Shown: positions 3,244 through 37,348 of the stretch, piece after piece | Numbering within the stretch: position 1 is the stretch's first letter | Layout: each line of letters starts with the position of its first letter | Virus record (IMG/VR): IMGVR_UViG_3300028738_000014 | Reading direction: 5' to 3' (one strand) | DNA: 64,000 nucleotides | Origin: a virus | Notes under the pieces: model-generated | Databases searched by the model: none | Told to the model about the DNA's origin: nothing | The model's input: the letters and a program-made list of their open reading frames with translations, nothing else | Program-made: the position numbers and the translations under genes

Positions 3244-4071
3244 ATGAGAATATTACATATTGAAAATTATAACTATCCGCTTCCGGAGAGCCTGAATGAG
3301 ATGACAACTGATCAGTTGATATTTCTTTCGAAGTTGGTGGATAAGGTGATTCCTATTCAGGAGGTAAAGGTGAAGATGTTGTTTTGCTGTCTGGGTGCGA
3401 AGGTGAAGCGAATGAAGAATGCAGGGTATTACCGTATCCGGATTGAAAAGTTCGTATTTGCCATGACGGTGGAACAGGTGGCTGAAGTATCCGGTGCGTT
3501 TGATTATTTGTTTACTGATCCGGATAAAGAGGGACGTTGTTTTTTTGACTGCCGGTTAACGGTGAATCCATTCCCGAAAGTGAAGTTAGGATACAGAATA
3601 ATATTTGGTCCTGCCGATGCATTGACTGACATTTGCTATAACCGGTATATTTATCTGGAATCGTATCATTCGGTCATGGAGAATAAACCGGAGGCTGTAT
3701 ATGCTTTTTTGGGATGCTTGTTTACCGACCCGCTCGCGAAAAAGCGAACGGGTCGAAATGAGTTTGATCCGAACAATCTACGCCTGGAACTTATGCAGAA
3801 AATAAAGCCGGAGGTAGTAGTATTGATGTGTTGGTATTACCTGGGAAGTATCCGGTTTATTGCGGATAAGTTTCCACGGATATTTAGTGGTGACGGTGAA
3901 GTAAGTACCGGAAGTGCATACGATGGACAACAGAAACTTATTGACTTTATTGCCAAAGGTGATCCGGCAAAGAAGAGAATGAATAAAGAAGATAATCTAT
4001 ATGATATATTGTATTCGTTGGATTATATGCTGGAGAAAGAGGAAGAGAAGACAACGACCCCCAACCCCTAA
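3244..4071 (+). CDS. hypothetical structural protein
   Basis: ORF; C-terminus TTTPNP is encoded by the hairpin linker, TAA stop = hairpin loop. Confidence 0.5.
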   Translation: MRILHIENYNYPLPESLNEMTTDQLIFLSKLVDKVIPIQEVKVKMLFCCLGAKVKRMKNAGYYRIRIEKFVFAMTVEQVAEVSGAFDYLFTDPDKEGRCFFDCRLTVNPFPKVKLGYRIIFGPADALTDICYNRYIYLESYHSVMENKPEAVYAFLGCLFTDPLAKKRTGRNEFDPNNLRLELMQKIKPEVVVLMCWYYLGSIRFIADKFPRIFSGDGEVSTGSAYDGQQKLIDFIAKGDPAKKRMNKEDNLYDILYSLDYMLEKEEEKTTTPNP

Positions 4072-4095
4072 AGGGGGGTAAGACAAGAGAATAGT
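4052..4095 (+). repeat. GC-hairpin linker copy 2
   Basis: ACGACCCCCAACCCCTAAAGGGGGGTAAGACAAGAGAATAG. Confidence 0.7.
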
Positions 4096-4116
4096 TTGTA
4101 TAGTTTGATTTTTTTC

Positions 4117-4160
4117 GCCCTGTACTGGTCTGTGAAGATAGGTACAGGGTCTTTTTTTTT
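4117..4160 (+). terminator. intrinsic terminator
   Basis: 8-bp stem CCCTGTAC/GTACAGGG followed by T9. Confidence 0.7.
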
Positions 4161-4218
4161 GTTGTTAATAAATTTACATATCTTTGCAGAATAATATTTA
4201 TTAACCCTATAAAATAAA

Positions 4219-4581
4219 ATGTTTATGAAAAAAATTATGTTAGTGGCTGTAATGGTGATGTTTTATTTAAGTATTTTTTCTCAATCACCAACTGATTCGA
4301 TTAAGGCTAAATTTATGTATTGCGAAATTGTAGGCACTGGAAGTTTATTTAGTACTAAAGTAAAGATTGAAATTGATTATGGTCAGGAAGTAAGTTTTTG
4401 GAATCAAGCTAATGGAAGAACATTGAAAGATGAAACGGGAAATTCTATTAAATTTAATTCAATGGTTGATGCGTTGAATTTTATGGGGACTAAAGGATGG
4501 GAGTTTGTTCAGGCATACAACGTGCTTAAATCTAATCAGGATGTATATCATTGGTTATTAAAACAAGAGATAAAAAAATAA
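4219..4581 (+). CDS. secreted/exported small protein (moron)
   Basis: N-terminal hydrophobic signal peptide MKKIMLVAVMVMFYLSIFSQ; own TATCTTTG promoter box at 4181-4188; terminator upstream. Confidence 0.55.
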   Translation: MFMKKIMLVAVMVMFYLSIFSQSPTDSIKAKFMYCEIVGTGSLFSTKVKIEIDYGQEVSFWNQANGRTLKDETGNSIKFNSMVDALNFMGTKGWEFVQAYNVLKSNQDVYHWLLKQEIKK

Positions 4582-4601
4582 ACTTTTAATCATAAAAAAC
4601 T

Positions 4602-5087
4602 ATGATTTGGATTATCATTATCATTACTGTAGCTATGCTTTTTCTTTTTATACAATCAAAAAAACCAGTTTATACAAATGAACCAGAACCGGAACCTTAT
4701 GTCCATCGTGATTTTAGAACTGAGGCTATATTGAGAAATATAGAGTATATGGGTGACCCTGCCAAAGAGGTTGGTGATTTTACTATTGATGTTAAAGGTT
4801 TATTTTATAGAACCAAGAAAGCTCAGTTACGTGCATGTGAACTTGCTGAAACAGAAATATTGTTTTTAGAAATAGACAATAGAAATCAGCATGATAAAAA
4901 TGCTATAAAAGTAAAAACGTTTGATGATATTTTTATTGGATATGTAGATGAATTTTATTCAAAGAAAGTTCGTCAAATGATTGATTCTAATTTTGAAATA
5001 GATTGTTTTGTAAGTTCTGTTTCATTGGATGATATACCATATGTCTCTATGCAATTATATTATTCTGGAAATAAACAACTAATTTAA
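4602..5087 (+). CDS. membrane-anchored protein
   Basis: N-terminal TM segment IWIIIIITVAMLFLFI. Confidence 0.5.
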   Translation: MIWIIIIITVAMLFLFIQSKKPVYTNEPEPEPYVHRDFRTEAILRNIEYMGDPAKEVGDFTIDVKGLFYRTKKAQLRACELAETEILFLEIDNRNQHDKNAIKVKTFDDIFIGYVDEFYSKKVRQMIDSNFEIDCFVSSVSLDDIPYVSMQLYYSGNKQLI

Positions 5088-5167
5088 AAAATAATTGTAT
5101 TTTTATTTGGTAGATAAAAAAAAGTTTCGCACTTTTGCATCGCTGAATACAATTATAGGGCTTTAGG

Positions 5168-5191
5168 CCCACCAAACGAGGTGGTTTTTTT
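5168..5191 (+). terminator. intrinsic terminator
   Basis: CCACC-AAACGA-GGTGG followed by T7. Confidence 0.6.
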
Positions 5192-5277
5192 ATGCCAAAA
5201 AATGAAACTTATTTAAAATATGGCGATGCCATATATCGAGCCGCTTAGAACGGTAATTGCCCTATGGTGTATTCAGC

Positions 5278-5302
5278 AGCGATATATGAGCATCGCTTTT
5301 TT
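5278..5302 (+). terminator. intrinsic terminator
   Basis: AGCGAT-ATATGAGC-ATCGCT followed by T6. Confidence 0.6.
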
Positions 5303-5334
5303 ATGCTCTAAAACTAAATGCTGAATACACCAAA

Positions 5335-5571
5335 ATGACAACAACCACCATCCGCAGGCTACGTCCTGCAAAGCCTGTCAAGGGCAAAACAGTAAGCAGT
5401 GTAGAATCACTTGCCTTTCTGCGTGAATTTTATCTGGAAGTAAAACGCGAAATCAAAAAGCGCGAAACAATTATGATGAATGGCAGTCGTACCCCTGATT
5501 GTGATTCTGTGTCTTTTCTTGGTGAGAACTTTAGCCTGACTATTGATTTTAAAGAAAAATTCAGAGTATGA
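5335..5571 (+). CDS. hypothetical small basic protein
   Basis: ORF; 4-nt overlap with next ORF. Confidence 0.4.
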   Translation: MTTTTIRRLRPAKPVKGKTVSSVESLAFLREFYLEVKREIKKRETIMMNGSRTPDCDSVSFLGENFSLTIDFKEKFRV

Positions 5572-5849
5572 CAATTATCAATGGAATGGAAGTACGCGAC
5601 GAATTGATCGACTTACTTAAGAACTGGGCACCTTATAACGAAGATTGTGAAAGCCATGTTGATTCGGCTATTGAAAGTCTGTTTGAATTAAATGATTATC
5701 TGATCGGTGCCCTGACAGAGGTAGTGACTGATGATATTGTACGAATGAGAGAAATCAGTAATTACCTCATTAACGTGAAATCACTCAAGGATGATTTGAA
5801 AGAATTGAACGGAATATTGAAAGTTTGTAAAATTGAAAGGAAAAAATGA
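5568..5849 (+). CDS. hypothetical protein
   Basis: ORF translationally coupled to 5335..5571. Confidence 0.45.
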   Translation: MTIINGMEVRDELIDLLKNWAPYNEDCESHVDSAIESLFELNDYLIGALTEVVTDDIVRMREISNYLINVKSLKDDLKELNGILKVCKIERKK

Positions 5850-5958
5850 TGATTGAATAGTTAATCATTTATAAATATAAATTGTATATACTTGATTAAC
5901 AATTGATTACATTATCTTTATATCGAAATTAAACTATAAATCTTTTAAATCAATCAAA

Positions 5959-6504
5959 ATGGAAACAAAAATTATTTCATTTGAAGAAAACAACATTACC
6001 TTTTTACTTTCAAAAGATAATGGAATGATGATTAATGCCACCGAAATGGCAAAGATATTTGGTAAACAAGTTAATGAATTCATGTCAAATGAAAGTACAA
6101 TTCTATTTGTTAAAGAAGCTTTAAATAACGGGAATTCCCGTTATATTAACATTTCAAATCAAGATGAATTGTATCGTACGAATCAAAAATCTGGAACATT
6201 TATGCACCGAATTTTAGCTTTGAAATTTGCAGCCTGGTTAAGTCCTAAATTTGAATTATGGATCTATTCCACCATTGAAAAATTACTATTCGGTAAACAC
6301 GTTGACAGGGAACAATCTTTTGAAAGAACATTATCCTTACAGAAGGAATTAGATATTCTGAGAGATAAGCCGAATAAAACAGGTGCAGATTTTGAAAGAT
6401 ACTTAGAAATTCAAACATTGATCCGGAGAGAAAAAACAGTCAGATCGTTGCTTACAAAAGAAAGTATAAATGAAATGGCAGATTTATTCAAAGAACAAGA
6501 ATGA
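5959..6504 (+). CDS. KilA-N/ORF6N-like domain protein (antirepressor-like)
   Basis: N-terminal NATEMAKIFGKQVNEFM resembles the ORF6N/KilA-N motif; followed by terminator. Confidence 0.45.
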   Translation: METKIISFEENNITFLLSKDNGMMINATEMAKIFGKQVNEFMSNESTILFVKEALNNGNSRYINISNQDELYRTNQKSGTFMHRILALKFAAWLSPKFELWIYSTIEKLLFGKHVDREQSFERTLSLQKELDILRDKPNKTGADFERYLEIQTLIRREKTVRSLLTKESINEMADLFKEQE

Positions 6505-6527
6505 AAAATAACTGACGATAATGAAAG

Positions 6528-6554
6528 GCCTTACAGCAATGTAGGGCTTTTTTT
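6528..6554 (+). terminator. intrinsic terminator
   Basis: GCCTTACA...TGTAGGGC stem with one G-U, then T7. Confidence 0.6.
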
Positions 6555-6555
6555 A

Positions 6556-6591
6556 TGTCCTTTAATTGATAATCGGTAGATTATATTTTTG
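6556..6591 (+). promoter_or_regulatory. conserved promoter-like box TGTCCTTTAATTGATAATC ... TATTTTTG (copy B)
   Basis: Near-identical to copy A; about 27 nt upstream of ATG 6618. Confidence 0.5.
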
Positions 6592-6617
6592 TATTCATAA
6601 ATTGATACATAAAATTT

Positions 6618-7115
6618 ATGGAAGAATATAATCATTTTGCATATGGCCTACAGATGGCTACGCGGTTGAAGGCGGTGAAGCATACGGACCAGGACAGGCG
6701 TTGGTATGAATGTGCTGAGAGCGATAACCTGATAAGCCTGATGCAACGACTGAGTAGTGTTACCGGTACGGTGATGATCGGGCTGGATGGTAAGAATTCG
6801 GATTTCGGGTATAATGATGCTGAGTCGCTGAGAAAGAAACCGCAATACTTTTTTATGATCCTGACCACTGCCCGGGCAGATGATTCGGCGGCTATACTTG
6901 CGGGTCAGGAAATGTGCGAAGGAATTGCCCTTCAGATACAGGCGCGCATGATGTTGGATAGCCGGAATTATGATAATGGATTGACAGGGTTTATTCCGGA
7001 ATCGGTAACCATTCGCGGGATTGGTCCAATGGGAGATAATCTGTTTGGGGTGATTATGGGATTTAATGAGGAACATGGAGTGGATTATCAGATTAAGGAT
7101 GAATACTGGACATAA
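6618..7115 (+). CDS. hypothetical structural protein
   Basis: ORF; conserved promoter-like box upstream; hairpin linker downstream. Confidence 0.5.
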   Translation: MEEYNHFAYGLQMATRLKAVKHTDQDRRWYECAESDNLISLMQRLSSVTGTVMIGLDGKNSDFGYNDAESLRKKPQYFFMILTTARADDSAAILAGQEMCEGIALQIQARMMLDSRNYDNGLTGFIPESVTIRGIGPMGDNLFGVIMGFNEEHGVDYQIKDEYWT

Positions 7116-26788: not shown

Positions 26789-26912
26789 TGGTGTGTACAG
26801 GATTCGAACCTGCACGTGTTCCTTTTCCAGTTTATTACGAGGGCTCGAACCTCGTCACACGTTAGCTATATTTCAAGCCTACTGTTGCGTCTACCAATTC
26901 CGCCAACACACC
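26789..26912 (-). ncRNA. 124-nt tRNA-like gene (type-II Leu/Ser-like arms with about 50-nt internal insertion)
   Basis: Minus-strand transcript has a perfect 7-bp acceptor GGUGUGU/ACACACC, D-arm GCGGAAUUGGUAGACGC identical to bacterial tRNA-Leu, T-arm GCAGG-UUCGAAU-CCUGU and a second GGUUCGAGCC hairpin; no canonical anticodon arm found. Confidence 0.5.
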
Positions 26913-35126: not shown

Positions 35127-35789
35127 ATGGAAACTACAGTGAAACAAAGACTTATAATTTTTTTGGCCTATAAGAAAATAGGCCAAAAAACGTTTGCTTT
35201 GTCATGTAATTTATCAGGAGGCTTTGTAAATAGTATAAGAAGCTCAATTCAACCAAAAACTATGCATGCAATTGCCATGCAATATCCGGACTTAAATTCC
35301 GGTTGGTTATTGACTGGTGAGGGTGAAATGCTTAAAGAAAAATTAACCGATAATTTATTAATAAGTGAACCTAAATTAAACTATGAAAAAAAAGGTGTTC
35401 CGTATTACGATGTTGACTTTATAGGAGGGTATGATATGGTAATAAATGACAAGACAACAACTCCATCTTATTATATAGATTTTCAACAATATAATAAAGC
35501 TGATCACTGGGTAAATATAACCGGTCATTCAATGGAACCACTGATCTCACATGGTGACATGATAGCTATCAGAGAGCTTCAGGATTGGAATACATACTTG
35601 TTATCCGGTGAAATATATGTTGTGGTTACGGATGAGTATAGAACCGTTAAGAAGGTGCGAAAATCAGGAAAGGGAGATGATTACATCAGACTTGTACCCC
35701 TTAACTTGGAATTTGATGAACAGGATATTCCGAAATCAATTATAAGAAAGGTATTCCAGGTTCTTGGAACGGCAAAGAAGATATTCTAA
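35127..35789 (+). CDS. CI-like repressor (HTH plus S24 LexA-type peptidase)
   Basis: C-terminal ITGHSMEPLISHGDMIAI (G-x-SM-x-P...GD) and a basic serine/lysine region. Confidence 0.7.
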   Translation: METTVKQRLIIFLAYKKIGQKTFALSCNLSGGFVNSIRSSIQPKTMHAIAMQYPDLNSGWLLTGEGEMLKEKLTDNLLISEPKLNYEKKGVPYYDVDFIGGYDMVINDKTTTPSYYIDFQQYNKADHWVNITGHSMEPLISHGDMIAIRELQDWNTYLLSGEIYVVVTDEYRTVKKVRKSGKGDDYIRLVPLNLEFDEQDIPKSIIRKVFQVLGTAKKIF

Positions 35790-36220: not shown

Positions 36221-37348
36221 ATGATTAATCGGAATTATACCACACCTAAATTAAACAATTGCAAGGGCGATCTATCTAAATCCTGGTATATCTATTTTGT
36301 TTTCGAATACGAAGGAGAAAAGAAACAATTTCGAGTTAAAGATGGGATTAATTTTCTTAAGACAAAAAAAGAGCGAGAAGAATTTGCCTCCGTCTTAATT
36401 AATATATACGTCTTACGACTAAAAGAGGGATGGAACCCATTCACCAAAGAAATAAAGGAAGAAATACCTGATATTACCATCTCTCAGGCTCTTGATGATA
36501 TACTATCAGTAAAGAAGAGCTATATAACCCCCCGGTCCTATAAGACCTATAAGGATGAAATAAACCTTTTCAAGAAATGGCTTGTAATTGCCAAATTCGA
36601 TAAACTATTTGTTCACAATTTTACTAATAAGCAGGCCCGGGGGTACTTCGATTGGCTACTTAAAGTAAAAAAATATTGTGGTAAAACTCACAACGGTCAT
36701 TTAAGTATTCTCAGCACTTTTTTTAATTCTTTTGTTGAACGTCAGCTTATAACTGAAAGCCCTATAAAAGGAATTAAGAAAGTCAGACAGGATACTGGGA
36801 AAAACATTACTTACTCACCGGTAGAAGAACAGAAGTTCATTAAATACACTTATACAAATGATAAACCATTTTACTACGCAACCCGTTTTGTTAAATATGG
36901 GTTCTTTCGTCGTACAGAATTAGGGTTACTTCAAATTAAACATATCAAATGGGAAAATAAAACCATTGTTATTCCTTCAGAGAACTCAAAGGGGAGGGAT
37001 CAAAACAGCGTTACAATTCCGGAGTCGTTGGAAAAGATTATTATTGAAATGAATATACTTGAGTTGGATCCGGAACTTTATATTTTTGGCGAATATTTTA
37101 AACCAAATACGGAACCTATTAAAATGATCGAGTATTTTTCTAAAACTCAACGAGAAATTAATAAACTTATCGAAGTTCCATCAAAAGGATTCTATGCGTG
37201 GAAGCATACGGGCTGTATAGAACTTTATAATATTGTAAAAGATCCTTATGTTATTATGAGGCAATGTAGACATTCAAATATTAAAGATACAATGACATAT
37301 TTACGATCATTGGGTTGTGGAGTAAATGAAGAAGTTAGGAGATGGTAA
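36221..37348 (+). CDS. int: tyrosine site-specific integrase
   Basis: C-terminal WKHTG...RQCRHSNIKDTMTYLRS (R, H-x-x-R, Y). Confidence 0.75.
   Translation: MINRNYTTPKLNNCKGDLSKSWYIYFVFEYEGEKKQFRVKDGINFLKTKKEREEFASVLINIYVLRLKEGWNPFTKEIKEEIPDITISQALDDILSVKKSYITPRSYKTYKDEINLFKKWLVIAKFDKLFVHNFTNKQARGYFDWLLKVKKYCGKTHNGHLSILSTFFNSFVERQLITESPIKGIKKVRQDTGKNITYSPVEEQKFIKYTYTNDKPFYYATRFVKYGFFRRTELGLLQIKHIKWENKTIVIPSENSKGRDQNSVTIPESLEKIIIEMNILELDPELYIFGEYFKPNTEPIKMIEYFSKTQREINKLIEVPSKGFYAWKHTGCIELYNIVKDPYVIMRQCRHSNIKDTMTYLRSLGCGVNEEVRRW

Follow-up and report, generated by a model that had tools for sequence, protein, structure and literature searches.

A three-box leader RNA as a candidate immunity-type switch in Bacteroidota phages

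Introduction

To our knowledge, all known RNA immunity systems (P4 CI, P1/P7 c4, N15 and IsrK) belong to enterobacterial phages and to one or two Rfam families, and regulatory RNAs of Bacteroidota phages are almost unknown. Here we analyze a gap of ~250 bases without a conserved open reading frame (ORF), at positions 5088-5334 on the + strand of a 64,000-nucleotide (nt) phage sequence, IMG/VR record IMGVR_UViG_3300028738_000014 (this whole stretch is called the window). The gap lies within the late gene region and contains three short boxes, C1, C2 and C3. Covariation shows the helices that these boxes form, the mutual exclusivity of those helices, the strand on which they act, and the co-variation of all three boxes. 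We consider that the locus is probably an RNA switch, which would control both termination and translation of an accessory/antirepressor operon through the three boxes, with C2 acting in trans in a box-specific manner.

The arrangement resembles several described systems. In P4, CI RNA pairs with seqA upstream and seqC downstream, with premature termination (PMC4825925). The module described here likewise has an antisense element in the leader of the operon it would control, flanked by a complementary site on each side within that transcript, and the order of elements is identical (C1 corresponding to seqA, C2 to seqB and C3 to seqC). It differs from P4 in having no sequence or structure similarity to it, and in what is controlled: replication genes in P4, an accessory/antirepressor operon in a Bacteroidota host here. 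The mature C4/CI RNA is made by RNase P from a tRNA-like, CCA-ended precursor, whereas a pair of intrinsic terminators, each with a U-tract, would define the ends here; the C2 body finishes in a stem plus U-tract, without CCA.

Heteroimmunity between P1 and P7 arises from co-varying changes in the c4 RNA and its target (PMC12197685). Similarly, C2 and its targets differ between related phages by matched changes. In the c4-icd-ant (immI) operon of P1/P7 the RNA comes from the promoter of its own target and blocks the start of a small first ORF coupled to the antirepressor, a layout that the module would share; c4 has two short loop sequences (a’ and b’), whereas one continuous box of 14-20 nt is found here.

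In Gifsy-1, IsrK is followed in order by a processed RNA (STnc1160), by orf45 and by anrP, an antirepressor gene (PMC4825925). Shared features are a promoter-proximal short RNA whose own terminator is partly read through, a second RNA species further downstream, a small ORF, an antirepressor, and alternative helices that hide or expose the first start site; in Gifsy-1, IsrK is an activator in trans. The immI unit of P22 (Pant, sar RNA, Arc and Mnt) is a secondary-immunity antirepressor unit embedded in the late structural operon, as the module may be; at that place, relatives of the window phage use a divergent small HTH repressor. The P22 sar RNA has been described (PMC12197685). It is an opposite-strand transcript, whereas all signals and the G-U bias lie on the + strand here. 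Antisense-RNA-driven transcription attenuation is also known from the plasmids pT181 and pIP501, and in our proposed model antisense binding to the nascent leader would similarly switch hairpins and create a terminator; the antisense RNA of those systems comes from the opposite DNA strand, and that of the module would be a sense-strand element of its own transcript.

An Rfam/Infernal scan, which an earlier reading of the letters alone (the sequence-only reading) had proposed as a check, matched no known RNA family at the locus. With cmscan over 4000-7000 and 5090-5345 (E <= 10), neither C4 (RF01695) nor IsrK (RF01394) was found, sar (RF00262) aligned only weakly and outside the locus (4255-4293; 17.9 bits, gathering score 43), and cis-regulatory models gave only chance-level, terminator-type alignments to Phe and Trp leaders (E = 1.7-7). 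Our literature search found no description of this locus. The module appears, by analogy, to work like the RNA immunity of P4 and P1, to which it is unrelated in sequence, and its inclusion in the C4, IsrK or sar RNA families is unsupported.

Structure of the leader

The module consists of the following features.

5106-5137, + strand: putative Bacteroidota-type promoter; -33 element TTTG (5106-5109), 20-nt spacer, -7 box CACTTTTG (5130-5137), then CA
5142-5161, + strand: box C1, GCTGAATACAATTATAGGGC; predicted 5’ end of the RNA and partner of C2
5158-5170, + strand: hairpin H1, GGGC-UUUAG-GCCC; the 3’ end of C1 provides its 5’ arm, and its 3’ arm shares 2 nt with the 5’ arm of T1
5169-5191, + strand: terminator T1, CCACC-AAACGA-GGUGG plus U7; found by terminator scan and conserved
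5218-5234, + strand: palindrome ATATGGCGATGCCATAT; alternative local hairpin, from the 5’ strand of the closing stem, when C1 and C2 are paired
5222-5297, + strand: antisense RNA body of ~100 nt, whose closing stem encloses hairpin P2 (5240-5254) and C2
5259-5278, + strand: box C2, GCCCUAUGGUGUAUUCAGCA, the antisense element; partner of C1 over 5259-5277 and of C3 over 5265-5278
5288-5308, + strand: helix GAGCAU/AUGCUC, in which the 3’ strand of terminator T2 is predicted to re-pair with a downstream complement in read-through RNA
5297-5302, + strand: U-tract of T2, conserved in all variants
5319-5332, + strand: box C3, UGCUGAAUACACCA; perfect 14-nt complement of C2, ending 2 nt before the start codon at 5335
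5354-5369 (GCAGG/CCUGC) and 5373-5385, + strand: two hairpins within the first ORF, from fold energy across variants

The sequence-only reading had listed in this gap a long imperfect inverted repeat, a GGGC-TTTAG-GCCC hairpin, two intrinsic terminators, a palindrome and a thrice-repeated box. Every one of these exists in the letters, displaced by 1-2 nt. The arms of the repeat, GCATCGCTGAATACAATTATAGGGC and GCCCTATGGTGTATTCAGCAGCGAT, lie at 5137-5161 and 5259-5283 (not 5139-5163 and 5261-5285); the GGGC-TTTAG-GCCC hairpin is present at 5158-5170; the CCACC/GGTGG stem occupies 5169-5184 and its T7 5185-5191 (given together as 5168-5191); and the palindrome had been put at 5219-5235. A terminator scan picked up both terminators. 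The repeated box, GCTGAATACA, has three copies in 64 kb, all within the gap, against 0.10 expected, and none of 100 shuffles reached three. Its third copy lies at 5320-5329 rather than 5322, and the full 14-nt complement of 5265-5278 spans 5319-5332. The pairing of the repeat is real, although it was incompletely described: there are three boxes and two competing helices, C1:C2 and C2:C3, with C3 on the translation start.

The second terminator also needed revision. The AGCGAT/ATCGCT hairpin is present at 5278-5297 with its T-run to 5302, but this short hairpin is not conserved past 4 base pairs (bp); the conserved T2 stem is a 17-bp long-range helix, 5222-5238 with 5280-5297 and A5289 bulged, which covaries. 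The palindrome and the short terminator had been seen because they are local folds of one of two conformers. The gap had been described as free of ORFs, and it holds no conserved one: ORFs of 34 and 18 amino acids (aa) there shrink to 4-8 codons in homologues. These small ORFs (18 aa at 5192 and 34 aa at 5220) were considered as leader peptides and rejected as not conserved. The locus itself is longer than had been proposed, running from the promoter to the hairpins within the first ORF, up to ~5385.

Bacteroides promoters follow a TTTG/TAnnTTTG consensus (the -33/-7 pattern), and the pattern (T/A)TTG-N19-20-nAnnTTTG-CA is kept in all variants; the same promoter box precedes the first gene in relatives with an HTH repressor in place of the RNA locus. 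C1 begins 2-5 nt past the -7 box in every variant. The stem letters of H1 vary among variants yet always pair, and its 2-nt overlap with T1 is present in all of them. An A/U-rich spacer between T1 and the C2 body is common to the variants, and 0-6 nt separate the end of C3 from the start codon.

Positions +10 to +60 of the first gene fold with a mean energy of -11.0 kcal/mol (30 variants, whatever protein is encoded), compared with -4.9 kcal/mol for the same region in 45 other ORF starts of the window phage (Mann-Whitney p = 6e-9). One or two stable hairpins occur at +19 to +58 in nearly all variants (L001-L068), and in some they survive amino-acid changes (e.g., GCAGG/CCUGC becoming GGCAG/CUGCC). 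Initiation positioning, RNA stabilization and protein binding are possible roles.

A short motif, AUG(C/U)CC, directly follows the T1 U-tract in both RNA families described below (window 5185-5197). In one of them, family B, it can pair with the 3’ arm of T1 (GGGC/GCCC, 98% of cells paired). The motif also follows the U-tract of an unrelated terminator at 6525-6556 (window 6549-6560). Pairing of the T1 3’ arm with the start of the first ORF was tried as well and rejected, as it is lost in variants with a different T1. A search of the 64 kb for further C2 targets found none above chance.

Homologous loci

We collected ~35 distinct versions of the locus, from uncultured phages and Paludibacter genomes, which fall into two sub-families with one shared layout. 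Peat and wetland samples (JGI 3300028xxx-3300031xxx) are among their sources. Loci were found through homologues of the 78-aa first ORF (ORF78) in IMG/VR, JGI metagenomes and Logan/ENA assemblies, and through DNA patterns of the conserved RNA scaffold; a similar pattern was used on GTDB genomes. GCGAUGC...GCAUCGC-U6 closes the body in family A, the window’s type, and ACGGCUGUA...UACAGCCGU-U5 closes it in family B, which shares this design.

The scaffold-pattern scan of GTDB gave four metagenome-assembled genomes (MAGs), one of them a 3.7-Mb chromosome. All four are Paludibacter, and therefore the host of the module-bearing phages is, by this genomic evidence, a member of the Bacteroidota (Paludibacter). 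Scanning GTDB genomes with the protein of the first ORF gave no match, and megablast/blastn of GenBank phages with the locus and 25 kb of the window matched nothing. An exact-pattern search of IMG/VR with the window’s own boxes was also empty; the boxes are variant-specific, and it was the conserved scaffold that retrieved loci.

Compensatory changes

RNAalifold was run on sequence-only MAFFT alignments, and counts were then made on stated structures. The program independently predicted C2:C3 in family A and C1:C2 in family B. In family A, two-sided changes were seen in 8 of the 14 pairs of C2:C3 and in 8 of the 10 pairs of the 5’ part of C1:C2, the centre of which is under-counted through MAFFT register errors. 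T1 had two-sided changes in 2/5 pairs, and all of its cells pair. The closing stem had 95.7% of cells paired and two covarying pairs, with compensatory versions ATATCG/CGATAT, ATCACG/CGTGAT and ATCTCG/CGAGAT. For the palindrome hairpin, 100% of cells paired and one pair covaried (a G-C/A-U switch in 6/13 sequences). The GAGCAU helix, predicted by RNAalifold, had two covarying pairs (GAGCA:TGCTC versus TGGCA:TGCCA); its support consists of the RNAalifold alignment plus a +1 slid control, and its family B equivalent is GUACAG/CUGUAC.

Family B gave the same picture. C1:C2 had two-sided changes in 11/19 pairs with 98% of cells paired, and the whole structure, which this helix dominates, had 98.1% of cells paired and 13 pairs with two-sided changes. 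None of 500 shuffles of family B reached the observed values on all five measures, two conservative ones included; for family A, 0/500 reached the observed covariation score or paired-cell fraction. In slid controls, 26-50% of cells paired (36-50% in family B), versus 84-98% observed. Thus the covariation check proposed by the sequence-only reading came out in favor of its main suggestion: the ~35 variants retain the inverted repeat, with many compensatory changes, as well as both terminators.

The functional strand could also be read from the alignments. U-tracts follow both hairpins on the + strand only, and no minus-strand terminator was found in the gap. When C1 was compared with the complement of C2, transitions giving G-U on the + strand numbered 47, versus 11 of the reverse kind, and several positions in family B accept UG and GU pairs. 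A structured RNA or regulatory switch (antisense or attenuator) between blocks of accessory genes, as originally suggested, is therefore supported by conservation, compensatory changes and + strand G-U wobbles.

Box specificity

C1, C2 and C3 always change together, and their letters differ even between otherwise near-identical phages. Loci L019 and L020 encode an identical first protein, and their promoter, T1 and spacer are 100% identical; their C1, C2 and C3 are unrelated. Between L020 and L026 a single position differs, and it is altered in all three boxes. Within the module, conservation is lowest in the boxes and H1 (mean pairwise identity 0.48-0.72, versus 0.80-0.87 for promoter and T1). 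Nevertheless, cognate C2 and C3 share a contiguous run of 8-18 bp (median 15, all 30 pattern-derived variants), versus a median of 7 (95th percentile 10) for non-cognate combinations; the only run below 11 bp is that of L043, in which a single mismatch breaks the helix. Roughly 20 distinct natural specificities are represented, and single samples hold several of them. Taken together with the known systems, this pattern suggests that C2 is probably a sequence-specific immunity determinant.

One contig, Ga0302207_1000041 (53.7 kb), carries two family A modules with different boxes (L016 and L018), and a separate ORF78 homologue follows each of them (58% and 36% identity to that of the window).

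The same observations bear on whether the boxes act as DNA. They could be operators for a protein, which the sequence-only reading had offered as an alternative, or C1 and C2 could be the inverted repeats of an invertible segment. Three 10-nt copies of the box, two of them inverted and ~116 bp apart, would fit such an element, and Bacteroidales genomes are rich in invertible promoters. The strand asymmetry of the mismatches and the wholesale replacement of boxes beside identical neighboring proteins both argue against an operator or an invertible segment; the operator set in particular is left unsupported by L019 and L020, with their identical flanks. Furthermore, the centre of C1:C2 is always imperfect, which is unfavorable for site-specific recombination, a flipped inner segment was seen in none of the ~35 variants (assembled sequences), and the terminators and the abutment of C3 on the start codon would be unexplained. 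We regard a DNA-level element as highly improbable.

Relatives with the same neighbors, a DUF4468 gene upstream and a member of the ORF78 family downstream, provide genomic context. Three of these (L021-L023) have, in place of the entire RNA locus, a divergent HTH_3 (XRE-type) gene of 83-88 aa:

L021, 4597-5000, divergent: HTH_3 replacement gene
L022, 15-418, divergent: HTH_3 replacement gene
L023, 1531-1971, divergent: HTH_3 replacement gene

Judged from gene arrangement, an RNA and a protein regulator have been exchanged naturally at this place. In all three, the TAnnTTTG-CA promoter box is overlain by AT-rich repeats that resemble operators.

Alternative folds and regulation

Different lengths of the leader are predicted to adopt different folds. 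For the RNA from promoter to T2, the minimum free energy (MFE) structure contains the full C1:C2 duplex together with two local hairpins, that of the palindrome and the short one of T2 (-56.8 kcal/mol, z = -5.7). The C2 body alone (5215-5303) folds into the 17-bp stem with C2 exposed (z = -3.4). In the full leader, C2 lies on C3 and the 3’ strand of T2 on its downstream complement (-61.1 kcal/mol, z = -5.0). As isolated duplexes, C1:C2 has -29.8 kcal/mol and C2:C3 -23.8 kcal/mol. The overlap of H1 and T1 has a predicted consequence of its own: in most of 29 scorable variants the outer T1 pairs have a probability of 0.0-0.3 in the free leader, where H1 competes, and of ~0.96 when C1 is blocked.

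From these features we infer the transcription start, the termination efficiencies, the action in trans and which state is ON, as follows. The promoter would start an RNA at C1, the leader of a self-contained + strand transcription unit. C2 could pair with C1 (~19 bp) or with C3 (14 bp), not fully with both. Pairing of C1 and C2 on the same RNA would block the long T2 stem, whose strands would collapse into the palindrome plus the weak short hairpin; C3 would then be free, and read-through and translation would set the operon ON. With C1 unavailable, the long T2 stem would form and terminate transcription, setting the operon OFF, and RNA escaping in this state would fold C2 onto C3 and hide the start site. 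Earlier transcripts, or a resident prophage, would supply free C2 RNA by release at T2, and this RNA would act on other RNAs. On nascent C1 it would open H1, leading to the full T1 hairpin, and would block the C1:C2 anti-terminator; it might also bind C3. The box would thereby serve as a specificity barcode, with mutual repression only among phages with the same boxes, and the outcome would be box-specific repression plus negative feedback on the synthesis of C2 itself.

The fold of the full leader, in which C2:C3 pairing makes translation OFF by default, would also suit an activator similar to IsrK. Here an abundant ~50-nt RNA from promoter to T1, with C1 at its 5’ end, would act in trans and free C3 by binding C2; C2 would only sequester within the same RNA, and the module would activate the operon rather than repress it. 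C1, H1 and T1 do form the classic small-RNA layout of single-stranded 5’ seed, hairpin and terminator, and Gifsy-1 IsrK uses the same mode with the same order of short RNA, processed RNA, small ORF and antirepressor (PMC4825925). However, each read-through mRNA already carries C1, and C1:C2 is the favored fold up to T2; nor does activation explain the overlap of H1 with T1 or the display of C2 in a loop by the long T2 stem. We consider activation, the chief rival reading, unlikely, and activating and repressing modes could coexist.

A simpler proposal would dispense with intermolecular action altogether. A single molecule could form all the pairings, and little energy separates the two states, so that the leader might be a purely cis-acting co-transcriptional attenuator with fixed or condition-dependent read-through; the failure to find a separate promoter for a C2 RNA is in keeping with this. 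A cis-only leader, however, would have no need for complete divergence of the boxes between phages with identical flanks, nor for many specificities co-occurring in the same samples, and the divergent repressor gene at the same place in relatives argues for a diffusible regulator rather than a constitutive attenuator. We rate a purely cis-acting leader as quite unlikely.

Several points weigh against our favored model. Its weak point is the release of free C2. No separate conserved promoter for a C2 RNA was found in the spacer between T1 and the body, the search including the TAnnTTTG box; C2 would depend on T1 read-through, so that any primary transcript with C2 would also carry C1. Possible ways around this are processing or kinetic partitioning. 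The window’s own H1 is a weak 4-bp hairpin, and even the free leader there forms T1 (outer pair probability 0.57, and 0.96 with C1 blocked). Fold energy does not separate the strands (minus strand z = -4.5). Most loci were retrieved by patterns requiring the closing stem, whose conservation is thus partly ascertainment; the boxes, H1, T1 and promoter were not part of the search patterns. Finally, recognizable antirepressors are confined to about a third of downstream operons, the rest leading to genes of unknown or structural function, and in the window the gene with an antirepressor-type domain (KilA-N) starts 110 nt past the preceding ORF93 and may have its own regulated promoter besides read-through from the RNA-controlled unit.

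In the same T1-to-body spacer, a sigma-70-like sequence, ATGCCA-16-TAAAAT, had been a candidate for a separate C2 promoter; it loses its spacing in homologues and was rejected.

We tentatively raise the possibility that RNA-only immunity evolved independently in Bacteroidota phages, with a single leader serving as both sensor (C1 and C3) and repressor source (C2), with a freely re-writable box of 14-20 nt as barcode, and with the module as a whole exchangeable for a protein repressor gene. If so, co-occurring Paludibacter phages would be sorted by their boxes into many mutually blind immunity groups, and this would be the first RNA-based immunity system outside phages of Proteobacteria. It would also supply naturally orthogonal, programmable terminator/translation switches for organisms without Shine-Dalgarno use. 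The module has the same three-site logic as the known RNA immunity systems, built of unrelated parts and with unusually clean covariation, and it offers a handle on the control of antirepressor/accessory operons and on self/non-self in temperate phages of an abundant anaerobic lineage. The locus merits an Rfam entry, as this region is blank in present annotation.

The downstream operon

The unit downstream of the leader contains the following.

5335-5571, + strand: first gene, 78 aa; its stop overlaps the next start (ATGA, 5568-5571)
5568-5849, + strand: ORF93, the second gene of the unit
5959-6504, + strand: KilA-N domain protein (KilA-N E = 3e-18; PHROG 129, ‘transcriptional regulator’)
6525-6556, + strand: strong intrinsic terminator closing the unit, hairpin GCCUUACA/UGUAGGGC plus U7, read from the letters; weak terminator-like alignment

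The 78-aa protein had no Pfam, PHROG or NCBIfam match, and a PDB profile search returned nothing meaningful; its AlphaFold model is of low confidence (pLDDT 62), too uncertain for a fold search. An antirepressor gene had been proposed downstream of the gap, and the KilA-N domain is indeed encoded there; the antirepressor role is assigned by domain annotation only. Other variants have P22_AR_N or AntA+ANT genes at the position of KilA-N. Antirepressor-type genes of the KilA-N, P22_AR_N or AntA+ANT (KilAC) kinds are found within ~1.5 kb downstream in about a third of loci. Bearing on a possible immI-like unit, we see a temperate phage, a promoter-like box, the terminator at 6525-6556, antirepressor-type domains and an HTH swap in relatives (by domain annotation).

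The 110-nt interval before KilA-N holds an 8-bp inverted repeat, GTTAATCA (5860-5867) and TGATTAAC (5893-5900), and a near-consensus -7 box, TATCTTTA, at 5913-5920.

The phage genome

The window is a temperate phage genome, with a CI/LexA-like repressor (35127-35789) and an integrase (36221-37348). The minus strand carries the replication genes, and the plus strand those for terminase, portal, capsid and tail. The gap is flanked upstream by a HIRAN-domain ORF (4602-5087) and downstream by the 78-aa ORF (5335-5571). The HIRAN domain (E = 5e-9) marks an unusual accessory gene for a phage late region, and a HIRAN protein is also encoded upstream of the module in L026 and L027. Further upstream, a strong intrinsic terminator at 4118-4160 (CCCUGUAC...GUACAGGG plus U9) is followed by a perfect TAnnTTTG box, TATCTTTG, at 4179-4186, upstream of an ORF at 4219-4581. 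From such signals the late region appears to be divided into small independent transcription units.

An Rfam scan of the whole window at gathering thresholds matched only tRNAs. Among these, a 124-nt match to the tRNA model on the - strand (26789-26912; 37.8 bits, gathering score 29), located between two early-region ORFs, was not reported by ARAGORN and may represent either a tRNA-like element or a tRNA interrupted by an insertion or intron.

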